Below are positions 20,598-28,570 of a stretch of DNA of 64,000 nucleotides, in pieces. Source of the DNA: an archaeon GW2011_AR15 (GTDB taxonomy: Archaea; Nanobdellota; Nanobdellia; Woesearchaeales; GW2011-AR15). A model generated the notes under the pieces. That model made no database searches. It was not told the DNA's origin and saw nothing but the letters and a program-made list of their open reading frames with translations. The translations under genes were made by a program, and so were the position numbers. The stretch spans positions 416,001 through 480,000 of the forward strand of contig CP010425.1 of assembly GCA_000830295.1 (NCBI GenBank), written 5' to 3'. The stretch's first letter is position 1. The number at the start of each line of letters is the position of its first letter.

Positions 20598-20745
20598 TTC
20601 TAATATCCCTTATTTTTCTTCAAACAGACCTATTCTTGGCTTCTCCTCAGAAACACTCTGAGCAGCCTTTTCAGGTCGCATTAAGCATGTGAAGTGCGTG
20701 CTTAGTATAACTTCGGAATTATAAGTGGTTTATAAATGTTGTGGA
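20598..20745 (-). promoter_or_regulatory. rpl3 operon promoter and structured ~110-nt 5' leader
   Basis: TTTATAAA at 20729-20736. Nested stems GACCT/AGGTC, GGCT/AGCC and CTCAGA/TCTGAG (20627-20677), plus a second hairpin at 20682-20704. Confidence 0.55.
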
Positions 20746-20819
20746 TGGAGGAGTTTTGCCTTAAAAGTCTACAATAAGTAAGACTTATTAGGCAGATTTC
20801 ACACTTATTGGGCAAAAAA

Positions 20820-21155
20820 TTATTTATCAAAAACTGATTTAAGCTTGTTCTCAATAACAATTTTAGTATCTCCTTGCGTAATTATAACATTATTATTTAT
20901 TATTATCTCAATTGGTTTCTTAGTTTTTGACTTTGTTTTTTCAAAGAATCGAATAATATAATGTGCTACTAACTCACTAGCTACACCAACACCAATAACA
21001 AAAATCAGATTAGTAGCTACTTCTTTAAATTTAAGGAAGCTTTCTTGAATTCTACCATAAACACGTAAATTTTCTATTGAGTTAAGGTTTTCAACTAATT
21101 CACTTACTCCAAAATCATCTACCCCCCCAATCCTAACGTCTATTTCTCCAATCAT
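20820..21155 (-). CDS. Hypothetical protein with one hydrophobic segment
   Basis: 111-aa ORF co-oriented directly downstream of the MTase-Mrr gene. Confidence 0.6.
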   Translation of the reverse strand: MIGEIDVRIGGVDDFGVSELVENLNSIENLRVYGRIQESFLKFKEVATNLIFVIGVGVASELVAHYIIRFFEKTKSKTKKPIEIIINNNVIITQGDTKIVIENKLKSVFDK

Positions 21156-21188
21156 TTTCAAATGCTTTTAATTTATATCAAAAATAAT

Positions 21189-22394
21189 TTATTCTTCTAC
21201 TTTTCCATCTATTAACTCCTGGACTGTCCTTAGAATAATAGTAATTCCTTTTTGATTTTTAACTCTAGCTACTTCTTCATATGCTCCCTTTGCAAATGAA
21301 AAAGCGACTATATATCCTTTCTTTTTATGGACTCTGTCCATAGCTGGTTGAAAATTATCTATAACATTCCGTCCTACACCTTCGCTTTGTTTAACCTGTA
21401 TAGGATAACCTCCAGATATTTGAGGAGTAACCCCATCTATTCCCATATCTCCTGATTTTGTTCCACTAACATTGCCAAGAAATTTATCAACAACAACCCA
21501 ATTTTGAAAATCAAAGGGGTTTAACTTCTGAACATATTTTAAATCTACTTTCCCTTTGATAATTTGTGGGCTTACTCCCAAATCTTGCCTTAATCTTCTT
21601 GCCATAACTTTACAGGCAGTGGGACTTATATCAATACCAATCCACCTTCTTTTAAGTTTTTGAGATACAACTAAAGTGGTTCCACAACCACAAAAAGGGT
21701 CTAAAACTATACTACCTTCATTTGAAGAGGCTTTAATTATTCTTTTTAATAATGGTTCTGGTTTTTGCGTTGGAAACATTTGTTTTATTGGTGGAACTCT
21801 ACCAATATCCCATACATCATCCATTGGAACCCCCTCAGAGTCTTCTTTTGACATTTTGGCAGGAATTCTTTTACCATTATCATCATAACCTGAAATTATT
21901 TTTGCATTTCCAAATCGCTTTAAGGTTGATTCTGACCTTTCCATAAACATCTTATTGAATACCCTTTTGTCATTATCTGTCTTTGAATAGAATAAGAGGA
22001 CATCATGATTTCGTTGAAATTGTTGCCATCCTCCCGACCATTTTCTATAATGCCATATTATCTCATTTCTAAAATTATTTTCTCCAAAAATATTATCCAT
22101 TAATATTCTTAGATGTGCGTCGGCGTGCCAATCACAATGCAAATATATACTACCTGTTTTTTTAAGGATTCTATTACATTCCCTTAATCTTGGCTCCATC
22201 CATGTTATATAGTGCTCTATTCCCCCTTGCCATCGGTCTTGAAATGCTCTAAGTTCAGCACCATCTTTCCATATAACTTCATAATGTCTATTAGAGAAGA
22301 AAGGTGGGTCTAAATAAATTAAGTCAACGCTTTCACTTGGAAATTTGCTTAATATCTCTAAGTTATCTCCTTCATAAATAGCATTTACTTCCAT
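21189..22394 (-). CDS. Beta-class N4/N6 DNA methyltransferase fused to an Mrr-like endonuclease domain
   Basis: DPPF, PTQKP and DPFCGCGTT motifs; C-terminal FQNWVV..GDMGIDG..IQVKQ; ATG 22394. Confidence 0.88.
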   Translation of the reverse strand: MEVNAIYEGDNLEILSKFPSESVDLIYLDPPFFSNRHYEVIWKDGAELRAFQDRWQGGIEHYITWMEPRLRECNRILKKTGSIYLHCDWHADAHLRILMDNIFGENNFRNEIIWHYRKWSGGWQQFQRNHDVLLFYSKTDNDKRVFNKMFMERSESTLKRFGNAKIISGYDDNGKRIPAKMSKEDSEGVPMDDVWDIGRVPPIKQMFPTQKPEPLLKRIIKASSNEGSIVLDPFCGCGTTLVVSQKLKRRWIGIDISPTACKVMARRLRQDLGVSPQIIKGKVDLKYVQKLNPFDFQNWVVVDKFLGNVSGTKSGDMGIDGVTPQISGGYPIQVKQSEGVGRNVIDNFQPAMDRVHKKKGYIVAFSFAKGAYEEVARVKNQKGITIILRTVQELIDGKVEE

Positions 22395-22482
22395 TAATGT
22401 ATTCGTTATCGTCTTAGTTATATAAATTTTTTCAAAAATGAACGGGAGCAACACAAAATTTATATTAAATTCCTACTAGATT

Positions 22483-23385
22483 ATGTTCAAAATAAAGAAA
22501 ATGGAAGAAATTATCTCACAATTGCCCAAATCTAGAGTGAAAATAGTCTCAAAAAATAAAACTTCTCATGTTTTGGTTAATGGAAATTCACTAAAATTAA
22601 TGAAAAATATGCCGGAGGAAAGTATACACTTGATAATAACGGACCCTCCATATAACATTGGATTGGATTATGGAGATGAGTATAATGACAATAAGTCTAA
22701 AAAGGAATATTACCGGTGGTGTGAGGAATGGTTAACTGAATGCGCAAGAATTCTACATAAGGAGGGAAGTTTTTATCTGATCAGTTACCCTGAGATAAAT
22801 GCCAGATTACTACCATTTATTGAAGATAATTTAAAATTAAATTTTCAGAGATGGATAACTTGGCATTATCCAACCAATATTGGACACTCAAACAAGAATT
22901 ACACAAGAAGTCATAGGTCAATACTATTTTTTACAAAATCAAGAAAATATGTTTTTAACAGAGAAAAGGTGTTACAGGCCTATAAAAATCCTGAGGTTGG
23001 TAAAATCAAAGATAAAATCAGAGAGGGTTCTATAGGAAGGGCCGCATATGATTATCTTGAGAACAAAGATGTTCTAGAAATGCAGGAATTAGAGAAACTG
23101 CAGGAAAGATATTATGATATTCAAAAGATAAATCTCCTAAAAAATGTATCAAAAGATAGGGTTGGATCACTAAAAAAAGGAGACAAGGACCACCATCCAT
23201 GCCAATTACCATTACCACTATTGGAGAGGCTTGTTAAGGTTAGCAGCAAAGAAAAACAAATTTTATTTGACCCATTTGCTGGAACATTTACACTCGCAAA
23301 AATTGCTTCTGATTTAGAAAGAAATTCAATAGGGATAGAGCAAAACCGATATTTTGTGAAGCTGGGAAGAGAGAGATTAGAATGA
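22483..23385 (+). CDS. Beta-class N4/N6 DNA methyltransferase
   Basis: TDPPYN, HPCQLP, DPFAGT, SIGIE motifs. Confidence 0.9.
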   Translation: MFKIKKMEEIISQLPKSRVKIVSKNKTSHVLVNGNSLKLMKNMPEESIHLIITDPPYNIGLDYGDEYNDNKSKKEYYRWCEEWLTECARILHKEGSFYLISYPEINARLLPFIEDNLKLNFQRWITWHYPTNIGHSNKNYTRSHRSILFFTKSRKYVFNREKVLQAYKNPEVGKIKDKIREGSIGRAAYDYLENKDVLEMQELEKLQERYYDIQKINLLKNVSKDRVGSLKKGDKDHHPCQLPLPLLERLVKVSSKEKQILFDPFAGTFTLAKIASDLERNSIGIEQNRYFVKLGRERLE

Positions 23386-25148
23386 AACAAAAATATTCAG
23401 CTAATGATGAGTTAAAAACCTTTGCTCAAAATCTTGGATTTAAAATATTTTTATTTGATGATATTATTACACTTGGCCCAGAAATTAAACTTAGAGAACA
23501 AAGCAAAAGCTGTGAAATAGATGCTATTTTGATATATGAGAATTTAATTATTTTAGTTGGTATAACTAAAGGGGATTCTACAGGAACGAAAAAAGAAATA
23601 AACAAGTTTTTTGAAAGATTGGATAAAGTATATTATACAAAAGATATGAAGTTAAATTTAGAAATAAACACTTCAAATAAAGAGGCAATTAAAAAAAATA
23701 TAATTAAGGCGAATATTTTGTATGAAGAACTTGAAAAAAATATTAAAGAAATTGAAAAAAATTATGAGCCAAAATTAACTAAGCTTTTTTTCTGCCCGAG
23801 ACATAGTCTAGATGAATTAAAATTAAGAGATAGAAGCTCCTCTGGTGAATATATTATAGACAAAGATGTGAATGGGTATTTTATTGCGGTTGTAGACAGG
23901 TTAAACACAAAAGTTCTTTTTAATGATTTTATGTATTTTTTAAATATAAAAAAAGTGGATTTGGAAAAAAAATCACCATCCAAAACAAAGAAACCCGGAA
24001 AAACATCACCTTACAGTCATGTAAGCAGGATGGAACTTGAGAAAGATAAAAGTATAATGTATTCATTTGCGGTTAAAGTAGAAGAAATAGTAGATTTTAT
24101 CACTGTTCTAAGAGTATCACAAAAATATAATAAGAAAGGGTTCCAAAGGATGATAAAGAAGAAAAGATTAGATAAAATTAATGATGGGTACCTAAATGAA
24201 AATGAAACATTTCCAAATAATGTTATTTTGACTCTAAACCCAAAAATATACCTAAATGAAAATGAGTTCTATGATAGAAATGAAAATGAGTTTAGATTTC
24301 TCGATGAGTTTAATTCATTGTATGTGATTGATGGTCAGCATAGAATTTTTTCCTTTATTAAAGGGGAAAAATTGGATAGGCCTGTGTTAATTTCTTTAAT
24401 TTTCTTTAAAACTGGAAATGATGATGAGAAAGCACTCAGTATGGATAGAATGTTTTATGAAATAAATAAAAAACAAGAAAAAATTGATCCGAATTTAAGT
24501 TTCATTCTTAAGGCGAGGATTGATCAAGATTCCAATGAAAATTTCTGGTATGGTGTGTTTGATAAGTTAAAAGAAGATATATTGGGCAATTCTTATTCTT
24601 TTAAAGAAACAACAATTAGAGATAAAGAGAAAAAAAGTATAGTGAGCCTAATAACGTACGGTGGTGTATTCGCACTAAATGATACAAAAAAGAAAAAAGG
24701 AATAGAGCTGTTTGGTCTCAAAAAATTTTATTCAGAAGAAAAACAAAAGAATATAGAGTTTGTTATTTGTTTTTTAAACAATTATTTCAAAATTATAGCT
24801 AAAGTTCTGAATAAACAAAATATAGATGAAAAAAAATTAACTGTAAGAGATATAGGTGCACTTTTGAGATTAATTAAACATTTCTTATTGTCTAAAAAAG
24901 AAGAATTAAAACTTTTAGGAGAAGTTAAAAATATAATAAAAAATGAAGAAAATAAAGATCTTATCAACTATTTAGAAAAAATATTGAACTATATACCATT
25001 CAAGGAGGTAGTAATGTTAGAGTATGGGTCAAGTAAGTGGGCAGCAATAGAAGGATATATGCTTAAAAAAATTAATGATATTGATCAACGTTTTGGCAAT
25101 AAAATTTTGCTCTCAAAAAAAGGACTTGAAGTATATAACCAAATATAA
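23382..25148 (+). CDS. DGQHR domain protein (DndB/ParB-like) with a degenerate N-terminal PD-(D/E)xK-like region
   Basis: GFQRMI, FPNNVIL, VIDGQHR and FYEINKKQ motifs; ATGA overlap with the upstream MTase. Confidence 0.88.
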   Translation: MKQKYSANDELKTFAQNLGFKIFLFDDIITLGPEIKLREQSKSCEIDAILIYENLIILVGITKGDSTGTKKEINKFFERLDKVYYTKDMKLNLEINTSNKEAIKKNIIKANILYEELEKNIKEIEKNYEPKLTKLFFCPRHSLDELKLRDRSSSGEYIIDKDVNGYFIAVVDRLNTKVLFNDFMYFLNIKKVDLEKKSPSKTKKPGKTSPYSHVSRMELEKDKSIMYSFAVKVEEIVDFITVLRVSQKYNKKGFQRMIKKKRLDKINDGYLNENETFPNNVILTLNPKIYLNENEFYDRNENEFRFLDEFNSLYVIDGQHRIFSFIKGEKLDRPVLISLIFFKTGNDDEKALSMDRMFYEINKKQEKIDPNLSFILKARIDQDSNENFWYGVFDKLKEDILGNSYSFKETTIRDKEKKSIVSLITYGGVFALNDTKKKKGIELFGLKKFYSEEKQKNIEFVICFLNNYFKIIAKVLNKQNIDEKKLTVRDIGALLRLIKHFLLSKKEELKLLGEVKNIIKNEENKDLINYLEKILNYIPFKEVVMLEYGSSKWAAIEGYMLKKINDIDQRFGNKILLSKKGLEVYNQI

Positions 25149-25220
25149 ACTAGATAATTATTTCTTTTTTATTAGGAGAGTCTTCAACCCCACAACATCT
25201 ACATCCACAACCAAAAACCT

Positions 25221-25646
25221 CTATCTCCGGATTAATCCCTCCAGAACATCAATACTATGCCTAAACTCCGGCTCATTCTGCTCAAGGTAAGAAGGCTCTA
25301 CAAATATGCCGTCATAATTGATCCTGTTTCTTATGTTTTTCAGCTGATGAACTGTAAATGACTCATACTCATATTCCGGATATGTTTCTTTAAAGAAAGA
25401 TATCAGGCACTCGTGATTGCCGGATTTAAGGCCGTTTTTCAATAATAGAGCTGTCAGCAATTCTCTTATTGTTTCATAATACATAACAGCAATTATCGAC
25501 GATGTCTCCCTGTCTTTTTTGATCTGCTGTATTGACTTAACCCTGGCCTTTGAAACTTTTAATATAGATATAATTTTGTCTTTATCAGGTTCCACTTTCT
25601 TAAGAAATTCCTTTTTGCACCTTTCATAGTGTATGATTTCCCTCAT
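25221..25646 (-). CDS. HEPN domain protein (putative toxin)
   Basis: YYE.IRELLTALL..G.K..NHECL and RNRINYDG; overlaps the MNT gene. Confidence 0.7.
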   Translation of the reverse strand: MREIIHYERCKKEFLKKVEPDKDKIISILKVSKARVKSIQQIKKDRETSSIIAVMYYETIRELLTALLLKNGLKSGNHECLISFFKETYPEYEYESFTVHQLKNIRNRINYDGIFVEPSYLEQNEPEFRHSIDVLEGLIRR

Positions 25647-26140
25647 AACCTACCGTATAAAGGTATGCCGTTGATAATATTGTTTCTTAGTTCCTCGGAC
25701 AGTTTCCGGAAATCCGGCTCAAAGAACAAGTTAACCCTGTGGTTAAGTGCTCTCTCAAACTTTCCTAAATTAACTTCTTTTTCGTTTGCCATGATATACA
25801 GATCAATGTCGCTCTCTTTGTCATATTCCCCTTTTGCCACGCTGCCGAATAAGACTATTGCTTTGGGGTATATGCTCTCTGCAAGGGCCTGTATCAACCC
25901 TGAGCTGTAAATCTTTTCTATAAGAAAATGCTTTTTATACACCTTATACAGCATATTTTCGGTGGCAGCCACATATTTATCATACGGCTCGTCTTTTTTC
26001 CTTATTACTATCCCCTGCTTTACCAGCTCTTTTAATTTGCCTGAAGCGGTTGTTTTGGGCGTTTTAGTTAATCTTGCAACTTGCCTCAGGTAGAATTCTT
26101 TTCCCGGGTTTTCATAGAATAGTTCTGCTAACTGTCCCAT
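25643..26140 (-). CDS. HTH + minimal nucleotidyltransferase (MNT antitoxin)
   Basis: N-terminal wHTH (YLRQVAR...LKELVKQGIV); FGSVAKGEYDKESDIDL is a GSX10DXD motif. Confidence 0.9.
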   Translation of the reverse strand: MGQLAELFYENPGKEFYLRQVARLTKTPKTTASGKLKELVKQGIVIRKKDEPYDKYVAATENMLYKVYKKHFLIEKIYSSGLIQALAESIYPKAIVLFGSVAKGEYDKESDIDLYIMANEKEVNLGKFERALNHRVNLFFEPDFRKLSEELRNNIINGIPLYGRL

Positions 26141-26180
26141 TTTTAGTACATTTGTCCCATAGTTGGGACATATATTTAAA
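26133..26180 (-). promoter_or_regulatory. Tandem palindromic operators and TATA box of the MNT-HEPN operon
   Basis: TGTCCCA-N4-TGGGACA at 26153-26170, degenerate copy TGTCCCA-N4-TAGTACA at 26133-26150, TTTAAATA adjacent. Confidence 0.65.
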
Positions 26181-26400
26181 TGTTTGTAAAAAAATATCCT
26201 AAATTACTAAGATTATTGCAAAAACATATTATAAATACAAAGTTCTAAACTGTTTAAACCTCCTCTTTCCCTGTTCGTCCCGCAGGTTCTCATTTTTATC
26301 TAAAGAATACTCCTCTATCATCTTTCTATATTCAAACACATTCAAAAACATACATCAAATCCCAACAATCTTTAAATATCAGCCTATCCAATAAAATCAC

Positions 26401-26550
26401 ATGAAATGCCCACATTGTAATAAAATAATTGAATCTAAAGAAACTAAACTAGTTAAGAAAATATATGAATTAGCTATTCAAGGCAAAAAAGACGAGATAA
26501 ATGAAAAAATGGTTCCGCAATTGGAAGAATTAAAACTATCTGTTGAGTAG
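26401..26550 (+). CDS. Small hypothetical protein (49 aa, N-terminal CPHC)
   Basis: MKCPHCNKIIE...LSVE; TTTAAATA at 26371-26378, about 23 bp upstream, suggests a leaderless transcript. Confidence 0.45.
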   Translation: MKCPHCNKIIESKETKLVKKIYELAIQGKKDEINEKMVPQLEELKLSVE

Positions 26551-26575
26551 ATTCTACCCGACCAGCACCCTCTCC

Positions 26576-26944
26576 TTAGCCCCTAACAAACTCAACCCCG
26601 TCAACATTCTCAAAGTCTTTGTCGCCGGTAAGGAACTTCACGCCGTTCTTTACAGATAAAACATAACCCAATGCATCAACATAAGAGATATTACTGCCCT
26701 GCTTATGCTTAAAATAATTGGCATTGATTATATCTGTTTCACCAAATTCAATCATAAACCCTCTAAGTTCATTGAAAAACATCAGCGCATTTTCTTTCCC
26801 GAATTCTTTCATGGTTGAATAATGTAGCTCCATAAGATTGAGCAGCGTAGTAACAACTTTTGCATCCTTGTATTTTTCATAATTTTTAGAGCCTTTTATT
26901 ATCTCTATAAGGGCATACGTGTCGAAAAAATAAGCTTCGCTCAT
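26576..26944 (-). CDS. vapC: PIN domain toxin VapC
   Basis: FFDTYA, NLME, SYVDA and LTGDKDF motifs; ATG 26944. Confidence 0.9.
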   Translation of the reverse strand: MSEAYFFDTYALIEIIKGSKNYEKYKDAKVVTTLLNLMELHYSTMKEFGKENALMFFNELRGFMIEFGETDIINANYFKHKQGSNISYVDALGYVLSVKNGVKFLTGDKDFENVDGVEFVRG

Positions 26945-26986
26945 TTTTACGGACTCTCCGCTTTGCTGCGAGTGTCGAAAAAATAA
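26919..26986. repeat. 15-bp direct repeat GTGTCGAAAAAATAA flanking a 38-bp GC-rich hairpin insert
   Basis: Exact copies at 26919-26933 and 26972-26986. Confidence 0.85.
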
Positions 26987-26987
26987 A

Positions 26988-27212
26988 CTATTTCCATCCT
27001 TCATCTATATCATCCATTATTTCTTGTGTAGATTTATTCCAGCCCTTTCCTGACCCAAATAATCTCTCAAGAGACTTTCTGCTCTGTTTTTCATCTATTA
27101 TTATCATCTTCACTCTCCCTTTCAGATTATTCCTTTCCACTGTTTCTTTCCTTAATCTTATCCCAAATGAGTTGCCCCATCTCTTGACTTCTCCTTCAAT
27201 TTCAACTGACAT
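26988..27212 (-). CDS. vapB: AbrB/MazE-family antitoxin
   Basis: VKRWGNSFGIRL motif; directly upstream of the PIN gene. Confidence 0.85.
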   Translation of the reverse strand: MSVEIEGEVKRWGNSFGIRLRKETVERNNLKGRVKMIIIDEKQSRKSLERLFGSGKGWNKSTQEIMDDIDEGWK

Positions 27213-27215
27213 ATA

Positions 27216-27232
27216 ATTATACAATGTATAAT
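27216..27232. promoter_or_regulatory. Palindromic operator of the vapBC operon
   Basis: ATTATACA-A-TGTATAAT between the TATA box and the ATG. Confidence 0.55.
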
Positions 27233-27338
27233 AAATATTTAAAGTTATCGGGGATAGGATTTAAGACAGGAAAAAATTAATAAGTTTATGCAGGAATTTT
27301 CCGAAAATTATTTATATTCTCAACCCATATATTAAACA

Positions 27339-27695
27339 ATGGTCAAGACGACAAGACACCATCGTTCTGTCATGTTTCTCAATCTCGTTGCATTAGTAAT
27401 TGTCCTCTTGGGATTAATATTAACAAGCAGATTATCCCACCCGACAGCCCACCTGGTAAGGATAACAGAAGGCAACAGCTTAGATTCTAAATTATTGAAA
27501 ACAGAAGACAGCTCGGCAATCATCTTCGAGACAGAGGACCGCAACACAACAACATACATACTCTCAACTTACCTAAACCACAGGAAATCAAATTACAACT
27601 CATTTATCGCACTGGCATTTTTCATAGCTGTTTTAACTTTCATCTATTTCATGTCTAAATTATATGTTTCTTACAAATCAGAGAAAACTATATAA
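27339..27695 (+). CDS. Hypothetical membrane protein (2 TM)
   Basis: 118-aa ORF with N- and C-terminal hydrophobic helices. Confidence 0.55.
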   Translation: MVKTTRHHRSVMFLNLVALVIVLLGLILTSRLSHPTAHLVRITEGNSLDSKLLKTEDSSAIIFETEDRNTTTYILSTYLNHRKSNYNSFIALAFFIAVLTFIYFMSKLYVSYKSEKTI

Positions 27696-27718
27696 ACCAA
27701 CCAATCCAAATCAGTTAA

Positions 27719-28570
27719 ATGGTCTTCGAGGACTTGATTGACCCTGCCAACGCAGAGTCCCATCCAAGAGCTGTCTTTCTCCACAGCGTTATATACGTCT
27801 CTTTGGGGCTTTTTTTAGGATGGTGGATATTCGGGGAGTATGCCTCTTTAGTTGCAGTATTCCTGACGACAATGGCTGCCATCCCCCTGATGCACAGCAT
27901 AATAAGGATAGAGGAAAAGAAAGATACAGTAATAGGTTCTGAAAAGAACCTGCTGAAAGAGCACTCAAAGGCCCTGAATGTCTTCATGGCATATTTCATA
28001 GGCGCGACGCTGACATTTGCCTTCTGGTATATAATACTGCCGCGGGACCTGAGCACTGCCATGTTCAATGTCCAGGAGAGCACCCTGACTGCGCTGGGCG
28101 TCCAGGTCACCGGGTTTACCTTTGCTGATTTCAATACCTTCCTATCCATACTCGCAAACAACCTCAAAGTCCTGCTTTTCTGCATACTGTTTTCCTTCCT
28201 TTACGGCGCGGGCGCGATATTCATACTCACGTGGAACGCGTCTGTCATAGGCTCGGCAATAGGCGTTACAATACTGAAGGGGATGGCAGAATTAGGGTTA
28301 AGACTCCACGAGAATTTCAGCCTGAACCACCTGACCGTGATTTCATACGGCCTGCTGAGATATACAGTGCACGGCATCCCTGAGATACTTGCCTATTTCA
28401 TAGCAGGGCTGGCAGGCGGGATAATTTCTGTTGCAGCAATAAGGCATGACTTCAGGACAAAAAGATACAGGCAGATAATAACAGATGCTTCTGTGCTGCT
28501 GCTGCTGAGCTTCATAATACTGGTTCTCGCTGCGTTCTTAGAAGTGTACGTGACGCCGGTATTATTCTAG
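27719..28570 (+). CDS. SpoIIM/DUF95-family membrane protein
   Basis: ILANNLKV, WNASVIG, HGIPE and AAFLE motifs. Confidence 0.85.
   Translation: MVFEDLIDPANAESHPRAVFLHSVIYVSLGLFLGWWIFGEYASLVAVFLTTMAAIPLMHSIIRIEEKKDTVIGSEKNLLKEHSKALNVFMAYFIGATLTFAFWYIILPRDLSTAMFNVQESTLTALGVQVTGFTFADFNTFLSILANNLKVLLFCILFSFLYGAGAIFILTWNASVIGSAIGVTILKGMAELGLRLHENFSLNHLTVISYGLLRYTVHGIPEILAYFIAGLAGGIISVAAIRHDFRTKRYRQIITDASVLLLLSFIILVLAAFLEVYVTPVLF

Follow-up and report, generated by a model that had tools for sequence, protein, structure and literature searches.

Proteins of the ParB/DndB-type fold are known for roles in chromosome segregation and in the regulation of DNA modification, and GmrSD and BrxU are modification-dependent. 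Links between such folds and restriction-modification (R-M) are already in print. A passage of Machnicka 2015 (PMC4619093) relates the DGQ(H/Q)R, QR and F..N motifs to GmrSD-type proteins, one in Makarova 2013 (PMC3632139) describes the COG1479/DUF262/DGQHR ParB-like domain as often fused to HNH, PD-(D/E)xK or HEPN domains and as linked to R-M, and one in Iyer 2016 (PMC4738411) lists ParB among the nuclease folds of N6-methyladenine (m6A) R-M systems. Here we analyse a stretch of 64,000 nucleotides, hereafter the window, from the archaeon GW2011_AR15 (assembly GCA_000830295.1, contig CP010425.1, positions 416001-480000; a single-contig genome of 1.16 Mb, 96.8% complete), and in it a pair of overlapping genes for a DNA methylase of 300 amino acids (aa) and a DGQHR-domain protein of 588 aa. 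We show that these genes form a conserved pair, and we consider it rather probable that they constitute an R-M-like module in which the 588-aa protein would be the restriction or effector subunit, a nucleotide-gated nuclease of the ParB fold.

Conservation of the methylase-DGQHR pair

The methylase is a beta-class N6/N4 DNA methyltransferase (PF01555, E 4.8e-49; PADLOC MTase_II, E 3.3e-56) with a DPPY motif at residues 54-57 and the S-adenosylmethionine motif FDPFAGTFT at residues 262-270, near the C-terminus. Its best NCBIfam match is the adenine methylase PRK11524, at 156 bits and under the 292-bit cut-off, and to judge by its sequence the enzyme is probably adenine-N6 specific. Homologues begin near Met7 of the window enzyme, and the true start may lie at this codon (22501). 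The methylase stop codon, TGA (23383-23385), overlaps the ATG (23382-23384) of the 588-aa open reading frame (ORF) in a 4-bp ATGA. The product of this second ORF scores 73.8 bits over residues 224-485 against TIGR03187, the model of the DGQHR domain (cut-off 58.85), and is thus a member of the DGQHR proteins. A word-indexed search retrieved 66 homologues of its family, 39-59% identical and about 590 aa long where full length, with source names that include Atribacteria and Heimdallarchaeia.

Conservation of the pairing was examined from both sides. Starting from the DGQHR protein, we obtained DNA context for 17 family loci (designated by L numbers), of which L010, L012 and L018 had no upstream sequence. 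An adjacent PF01555-type methylase was present in all 14 loci with upstream sequence: directly upstream on the same strand in 12, separated by a small gene in L017 and divergently oriented in L016. Gaps between the two genes run from -38 to +27 bp in most pairs (the exceptions are L002, L038 and L017), and a 4-bp overlap of the ATGA type occurs in the window and in 9/25 measured loci, L003 and L039 being counted once.

Starting from the methylase, we took one genome per species, kept the best 80 of 236 relatives and examined the 20 whose identity reaches 42%. By title, these records come largely from candidate phyla radiation (CPR) bacteria and DPANN archaea, a biased sample, and one of them is the same contig as L003. 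A gene for a DGQHR-type protein of 514-595 aa lies immediately downstream in 13 of the 20 loci, recognized by the family hidden Markov model in 11, by TIGR03187 (69 bits) in L027 and by similarity to the N-terminal domain in the truncated L026. Two loci have no evident partner, and five have another large defence-type protein there. In three of the five the partner gene follows the methylase on its strand: L036 encodes a GHKL (HATPase_c_3) ATPase similar to the BbrUII/HgiDII restriction family (80.8 bits against a cut-off of 550), L034 a ResIII helicase with similarity to restriction enzymes of the dnd and PLD types (382 bits against a cut-off of 600) and L025 an SMC/DndD-like ATPase. In the other two it is convergent, encoding a second GHKL (HATPase_c_3) ATPase in L037 and an AIPR protein in L041. 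These partners suggest that one methylase chassis may serve several effector types. The methylases of L025, L034, L036, L037 and L041 are 44-57% identical to the window enzyme.

The pairing of methylase and DGQHR genes, found in 14/14 loci from the one side and 13/20 from the other, is far beyond chance. Conservation of a two-gene operon had been named as a test of its proposal by the first-pass annotation, which a model had prepared from the sequence, and the operon proved to be conserved in both surveys. Among the loci examined, the DGQHR gene was never seen without a methylase, whereas the methylase was seen without a DGQHR gene, and this asymmetry is the pattern expected of a toxic restriction gene. 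The DGQHR partners in the 13 methylase-first loci are 22-32% identical to the window protein, as against 50-60% for the methylases. Fast-evolving nucleases beside conserved methylases are the usual pattern in R-M systems.

Partner methylases in the DGQHR-first loci are of several kinds. Ten of the 14 are orthologues of the window enzyme (53-61% identity, DPPY), and the others, all with SPPY, fall into a second clade (L002, L017) and a third (L004, L016). We built a maximum-likelihood tree from 16 DGQHR proteins, leaving out the fragments L012 and L018, and it joins L004 to L017 and L002 to L016 with good support in each case; these pairings rule out co-phylogeny of the DGQHR protein with the second and third methylase clades (B and C). 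Because the DGQHR tree does not follow methylase type, the methylase partner has been exchanged repeatedly, always for another PF01555 enzyme. Several exchanges of partner, and the tendency of defence islands to juxtapose unrelated genes, would also be seen if two unrelated mobile genes were travelling together by chance and their adjacency had no meaning. We regard this explanation as highly improbable, because the pairing recurs at the frequencies given above in both archaea and bacteria, mostly with overlapping or abutting frames, and because the partner after exchange is still always a PF01555 methylase.

Domain architecture of the DGQHR protein

No Pfam-A family matches the 588-aa protein, and sequence searches of the Protein Data Bank (PDB) with the protein and with its family profiles gave chance-level matches only. 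No relative was found among viral contigs. The AlphaFold2 model of the protein, built from a 27-sequence alignment, has a predicted local distance difference test score (pLDDT) of 86.4 and a predicted template modelling score of 0.76. A whole-protein Foldseek search with this model returned no match at E <= 0.001, and the structural matches given below came from domain-wise and VIA-align searches.

The N-terminal domain is modelled with similar scores on its own (residues 1-210, pLDDT 85.9). Its fold was compared with 48,161 PDB representatives, without Foldseek, and the top matches were AF1548 (Z 9.0; 115 aligned residues, root-mean-square deviation 3.2), the nickase N.BspD6I (Z 8.0) and the small subunit of R.BspD6I (Z 8.0). 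Further matches were Cdn1 (Z 7.4), the FokI cleavage domain (Z 7.0) and Can2 (Z 7.0), and lower ones include BstEII, NucS, Card1, Bax1, HamA, Hjc, MspJI and SduA. Nearly all of the top 30 are PD-(D/E)xK nucleases, and the model thus assigns the domain to the PD-(D/E)xK nuclease fold class; as the Z values are moderate, this assignment is to the fold class and not to the kin of any one match. A profile of the domain searched against 1.84 billion representatives gave 28 matches, all from the same family or fragments of it, and no other architecture.

Polar residues of this domain that are invariant in the family are N8, D26, D27, D47, N54, K134, D160 and Y166, together with K161 in a smaller set. 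The FDD motif (D26, D27) is peculiar to the window family, and D160 and Y166-F167 are common to the diverged partners too. EIDA stands at residues 45-48 and LVGITKG at 58-64, with the E-x-K position reading G60-I61-T62 and followed by K63. The catalytic D...(D/E)-x-K triad is therefore not found in the window protein: D47 is invariant, but the Glu position is G60 and the Lys position is Thr. At position 60 of the 27-member alignment, 15 members have G, 4 have S, 1 has A and 7 have E. Diverged DGQHR partners beside orthologous methylases have Glu at this position in 11/12 cases, and L028 reads E-C-K. The alignment shows D47...E-x-T as the putative ancestral pattern of the domain, and the textbook D...E-C-K in L028. 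Cleavage by the window protein would need a rearranged site, which is possible (D26/D27, K134 and D160 are invariant).

The central core contains the motifs FQR (254-256), FPN (277-279), IDGQHR (316-321) and FYEINKKQ (358-365), and FQR, FPN, DGQHR and F..IN..Q are invariant across the 27 aligned family members. Structural matches of the core (about residues 215-365) are PadC (Z 8.2), ParB-CDP (Z 8.1), Caulobacter ParB (Z 8.0) and Noc (Z 7.9), and also sulfiredoxin (Z 6.6) and SspE (Z 4.2). The core is thus predicted to have the fold of ParB/Srx nucleoside triphosphatases with a conserved arginine motif (D317-G-Q-H-R321, invariant).

In the structure comparison, the C-terminal helices correspond to the helical, DNA-binding portions of KorB (Z 7.6, residues 215-508) and pNOB8 ParB-N (Z 6.0, residues 220-553). 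Helices also make up the last ~100 residues, in which R489, G492, A493, F501, S551, W553, E557, F571 and G572 are invariant and H500 is nearly so; inspection by eye found no evident Rx4-6H HEPN motif among them (R496-x3-H500). A protein-atlas look-up gave other DGQHR clusters of ~580-614 aa, including bacterial ones of ~600 aa, and NERD/Mrr_cat proteins, all of which we treat as leads only.

Much of what the first-pass annotation had read from the letters is confirmed by these comparisons, namely the overlap of the methylase stop with the ATGA start (23382-23385), the intact QR, FPN, IDGQHR and F..IN..Q motifs, a PD-(D/E)xK-like N-terminus with Gly in place of the expected Glu, and a helical C-terminal domain.

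Genomic island and neighbouring genes

The pair lies in an island of low GC content bordered by a ribosomal protein L3 gene and a SpoIIM-like gene (Table 1). The gap between these two border genes is 7,121 bp in the window and 168-229 bp in all five relatives searched (four of the same genus and one of the same family), and because the flanking genes are such close neighbours in these relatives we identify the island as an insertion. Searches with the 588-aa family profile found no match in the five same-genus genomes searched, and 39 of 40 relatives overall had none; the lone match was a bare DGQHR-domain match. The methylase and DGQHR pair has been acquired horizontally and lies in a strain-specific, low-GC island. 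The 7.1-kb island occupies a short divergent intergenic region just upstream of the L3 gene. No convincing flanking direct repeats were found at its borders, no tRNA gene is present in the window and no integrase was seen.

Table 1. Features of the island, its borders and the domains of the 588-aa DGQHR protein (coordinates are those of the window)
Feature	Position	Strand	Remarks
Ribosomal protein L3 gene	19617-20597	-	island border
Inserted island	20598..27718	.	GC 26-37% vs 45-49% in flanks (GC profile)
ORF, 113 aa	20820-21161	-	no family matches
PF01555 methylase fused to Mrr_cat nuclease domain	21189-22454	-	divergent neighbour of the pair
300-aa methylase	22483-23385	+	
588-aa DGQHR protein	23382-25148	+	
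N-terminal restriction-endonuclease-like (PD-(D/E)xK) domain	23382..23957	+	residues 1-192
ParB/Srx-fold nucleotide-binding core (predicted)	24024..24476	+	residues 215-365; invariant FQR, FPN, E309/N311, DGQHR (317-321)
Helical C-terminal region	24477..25145	+	residues 366-588; first part inside TIGR03187 match (to 485)
HEPN-like/nucleotidyltransferase pair	25221-26140	-	PADLOC candidate PDC-M05
PIN toxin gene with small upstream ORF	26576-27224	-	
SpoIIM-like gene	27719-28570	+	island border

The divergent neighbour of the pair is a DPPF-type methylase that carries an Mrr_cat domain at its C-terminus (residues 331-415, E 1.8e-5). In PADLOC it matches best to an MTase_II model, over residues 22-374, and Met21 is a likelier start than the GTG at 22454. 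The fusion protein may be an R-M enzyme in its own right, with both functions on one chain. The loci L005, L006, L008 and L009 likewise have a second methylase near the pair. On the other side of the pair, a 141-aa HEPN-like protein and a 165-aa winged helix-turn-helix nucleotidyltransferase (Polbeta/NTP_transf_2) match both halves of PDC-M05 (E 0.001 and 1.7e-16) and form a pair of the HEPN-MNT toxin-antitoxin type. The 142-aa PIN-domain protein (E 1.6e-8) follows an overlapping 78-aa ORF without a family match, and the two probably form a VapBC-type pair.

Neighbours of the pair in other genomes are varied. An all-against-all comparison of neighbours across the loci found no conserved third gene, and the large neighbours are unrelated to each other, comprising two ResIII types, a Type ISP-like and a Type IIG-like protein, ribonucleotide reductase and a TIR-WD40 protein. 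ResIII helicases are encoded near the pair in L003, L006, L008 and L009, and further R-M neighbours include the Type ISP-like protein of L028 and the Type IIG-like protein of L029. In several loci the pair has only housekeeping genes around it, such as those for ribonucleotide reductase, upstream of it in L030, and for a vitamin transporter in L027. As there is no conserved third gene and the neighbours vary, the pair looks self-sufficient.

Two further observations concern individual loci. Three loci from the family's most divergent branch (~40% identity) each have a different gene directly following the DGQHR gene, and all three products are of DNA-acting types, namely GIY-YIG-like at L013:7821-8258 (E 3e-4, below cut-off), staphylococcal-nuclease-like at L014:7758-8489 and HhH-GPD-like at L015:3516-4481 (below cut-off). 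On a Saccharibacteria contig, a protein with GmrSD_N (DUF262) and HNH domains is encoded directly upstream of the methylase-DGQHR pair (L042:3815-4906), placing two different ParB-fold nuclease architectures side by side.

Discussion

We favour an R-M-like role for the pair because the DGQHR gene was never seen without a methylase while the methylase was seen without it, because large ATPases, helicases or proteins of the abortive-infection type otherwise occupy the position downstream of the methylase, because the partner evolves much faster than the methylase, and because nuclease and nucleotide-switch folds are combined in one protein. A methylase gene adjacent to a restriction gene is the arrangement of R-M systems, and it is the arrangement found in the window, with overlapping frames, and in the 14/14 and 13/20 loci, where the cleavage side is putative.

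In the mechanism that we envisage, the methylase would mark host DNA, probably with m6A. The ParB-fold and helical parts of the 588-aa protein would bind DNA and a nucleoside triphosphate (NTP), and NTP binding or hydrolysis would gate the nuclease domain against DNA without the methylase mark. That the protein binds NTP and cuts DNA, that methylation affects it and that the pair confers defence are thus inferred. By analogy with a DndB-like protein, the NTP would most likely be ATP or GTP. Passages of a preprint (Kaljevic et al. 2025, bioRxiv 10.1101/2025.10.10.680097) report in vitro binding of ATP and GTP by a DndB-like protein, and loss of nucleotide binding in such proteins when arginines of the P motif were changed to alanine. 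With methylases of three clades among its partners, the 588-aa protein may lack a fixed sequence specificity of its own. A complex prediction for the methylase and the DGQHR protein gave a score of 0.00, which weighs neither for nor against. A search of sequencing runs listed 20 of DNA and none of RNA.

Several points weigh against the R-M-like role. The characterised DGQHR proteins act on the side of modification or regulation and are not known to be nucleases. DpdB is an ATPase helper of DpdA. DndB is an ATP-dependent negative regulator or repressor, on the modification side, in the account given in a passage of PMC10853773. The change from Glu to Gly at position 60 leaves the canonical triad of the window clade incomplete as aligned, the Glu position being small (G/S/A) in 20/27 members and the Lys position Thr. 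Four loci pair close DGQHR proteins with two other PF01555 clades, which is hard to square with a sequence-specific enzyme bound to one methylase. Finally, the methylase and DGQHR genes of L017 are separated by a gene for a complete BglII-like nuclease (PF09195, E 8e-27); from the gene content, the DGQHR protein is not the sole candidate nuclease of this locus, and its gene rides with a complete ordinary Type II system. The gene order at L017:4326-7776 is SPPY methylase, 204-aa BglII-like endonuclease and DGQHR protein, with a Mu-type transposase gene downstream.

Such points may instead indicate a role for the DGQHR protein as an accessory or controller, serving the methylase or R-M systems nearby. 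Like DndB, an ATP-modulated repressor that limits modification, or DpdB, it would bind DNA and NTP so as to control or help methylation, or to adjust the activity of another restriction enzyme, and would not be a nuclease. This is how DndB, also a DGQHR-domain protein, is described in the passage cited; the degenerate triad of the window clade and the three-gene order of L017 would fit it, as would the frequency of R-M genes among the neighbours (L003, L006, L008, L009, L028, L029 and the methylase-Mrr fusion in the window). We nevertheless think a controller rather unlikely. A nuclease-fold domain of 190 residues, with nine invariant polar residues, is conserved throughout, and most diverged partners keep D...E-x-T/K. 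The slot of the DGQHR gene holds large ATPase, helicase or AIPR-type proteins in 5/20 methylase-first loci, the pair is alone in several genomes with no conserved third gene, and PF01555 methylases normally have no need of a helper. The first-pass annotation had proposed methylation-gated restriction or an abortive system. One part of this proposal that stands is that the DGQHR protein fills a slot of ATPase, helicase and abortive-type proteins. Its idea of a DGQHR NTPase that senses unmethylated DNA is purely conjectural, and the proposal is weakened by the non-canonical nuclease site, by the BglII-like nuclease of L017 and by the possible accessory or controller role.

The loss of the catalytic Glu from the N-terminal domain, and the toxin-antitoxin pairs in which the island is rich, could also reflect an addiction or abortive-infection module with a non-cutting effector. 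Lapse of methylation, or infection, would trigger the effector, which would act by degradation or depletion of nucleotides or by arrest, and the nuclease-like domain would be a sensor or a dimerization unit. A proposal that ParB/Srx-superfamily proteins in conflict systems degrade nucleotides appears in part of PMC10853773. The helical part of the 588-aa protein, however, resembles the DNA-binding region of ParB and KorB, and its constant association with a DNA methylase points to the state of DNA as the thing that is read, so that we consider a non-cutting effector distinctly improbable.

Type III enzymes are described by a sliding model, and the R-M-like role can be extended to a more specific and more speculative form. 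The 588-aa protein would load on DNA, NTP binding would close it into a clamp, and the clamp would slide. The 588-aa protein would then be a restriction enzyme of a new class, with an NTP-gated sliding clamp of the ParB type where Type III enzymes have their helicase motor, and would fire the FokI-like domain on meeting or missing the mark of the adjacent methylase. Such a clamp would explain why methylases are swapped between clades and are always of PF01555, and why the module is so frequent among CPR bacteria and DPANN archaea, with their minimal genomes, although we think it unlikely that the model is correct in this form.

If the R-M-like role is correct, the pair would be a compact and experimentally untouched type of R-M system, whose restriction subunit uses a nucleotide switch of the ParB/DndB type. 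It would give DGQHR proteins a function outside Dnd and Dpd, and extend the idea of the ParB fold as a 'molecular switch' to DNA cleavage. At ~2.7 kb it would be a defence module mainly from CPR bacteria and DPANN archaea in the loci retrieved, themselves a biased sample.

Comparison with known systems

Searches of PADLOC-DB 2.0 with the pair found no named system, only generic methylase matches and a weak match to the DpdB domain (residues 222-337, E 2.3e-10). Literature on DGQHR, DndB-like and R-M-linked ParB proteins yielded no description of a methylase-DGQHR pair, which supplements may list. The passages of Makarova 2013 and Iyer 2016 considered here give the general idea only and describe neither the window family nor its fixed pairing with a beta-class methylase nor its distribution; their supplements too may list the pair. 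The general idea of ParB-fold nucleases in R-M loci is thus already in print, and this pair itself is probably uncharacterised. The new two-gene defence system of the first-pass annotation survives as a conserved, mobile unit that matches no named system in PADLOC-DB 2.0, while the word 'new' is too strong given the earlier accounts of ParB-fold nucleases in R-M.

The 588-aa protein resembles DndB and DpdB in having the same DGQHR domain and in being encoded next to a DNA-modifying enzyme, and differs from them in its extra nuclease-fold N-terminal domain and in its partner, a methylase. It is not DndB by the models used: there was no match to Pfam DndB (PF14072) at E <= 10, and TIGR04172 gave 45.1 bits against a cut-off of 450 (the DndB equivalog model was not searched). 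Nor is it DpdB, NF041060 giving 40.4 bits against a cut-off of 300, with no DpdA (NF041059) match in the genome. The first-pass annotation had reported an absence of dnd and dpd genes, and across the whole genome no DndC, DndD or DpdA match was found (DndE was not searched for). Its statement that the window lacks a canonical restriction gene is harder to maintain, as a restriction-type Mrr_cat domain is encoded in the gene 30 bp from the pair (the rest of the window was not scanned for restriction genes).

GmrSD, BrxU and SspE share with the 588-aa protein the logic of one polypeptide that joins a ParB/Srx-fold nucleotide switch, with DGQ(H/Q)R, QR and F..N motifs, to a nuclease domain, encoded by a defence-island gene. 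Like them, the 588-aa protein would respond to how DNA is modified. Their nuclease is a C-terminal HNH domain (DUF1524), whereas the 588-aa protein has an N-terminal, FokI/BspD6I-like domain of the PD-(D/E)xK fold and a switch of the DndB type (DGQHR). Membership of this group was rejected: the protein has no GmrSD_N (DUF262) or DUF1524 Pfam match, it reads DGQHR and not DGQQR, and its similarity to SspE, which aligns to residues 220-365, is at the level of the fold only (Z 4.2). It has its own methylase, so it would presumably be blocked and not triggered by modification, in contrast to the modification-dependent GmrSD and BrxU.

Phages offer a further comparison, as fusions of a ParB-CTPase fold with an N6_N4 methylase are frequent in phages and prophages according to passages of Kaljevic et al. 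2025 (bioRxiv 10.1101/2025.10.10.680097). ParB/Srx and PF01555 folds are functionally linked there as well. The fusions, as presented in those passages, are single proteins that lack a nuclease domain and have a presumed role in anti-defence, whereas the window has two genes, a fold of the DGQHR type and a nuclease-fold domain.

Type III systems (Mod and Res) and the NTP-dependent Type II enzymes of the BbrUII/HgiDII family have a comparable layout, in which a beta-class methylase of PF01555 is followed by a large subunit with NTPase and nuclease parts, and the clade of the window methylase is itself found elsewhere with a GHKL ATPase or a ResIII helicase. The pair is not a Type III system, as the 588-aa protein has no helicase or ResIII domain and ResIII genes are only occasional, non-homologous neighbours. 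Where those systems have a superfamily 2 helicase or a GHKL ATPase, the 588-aa protein has neither; its presumed NTP switch is of the ParB/Srx type, and its methylase is small (~290 aa) and stand-alone.

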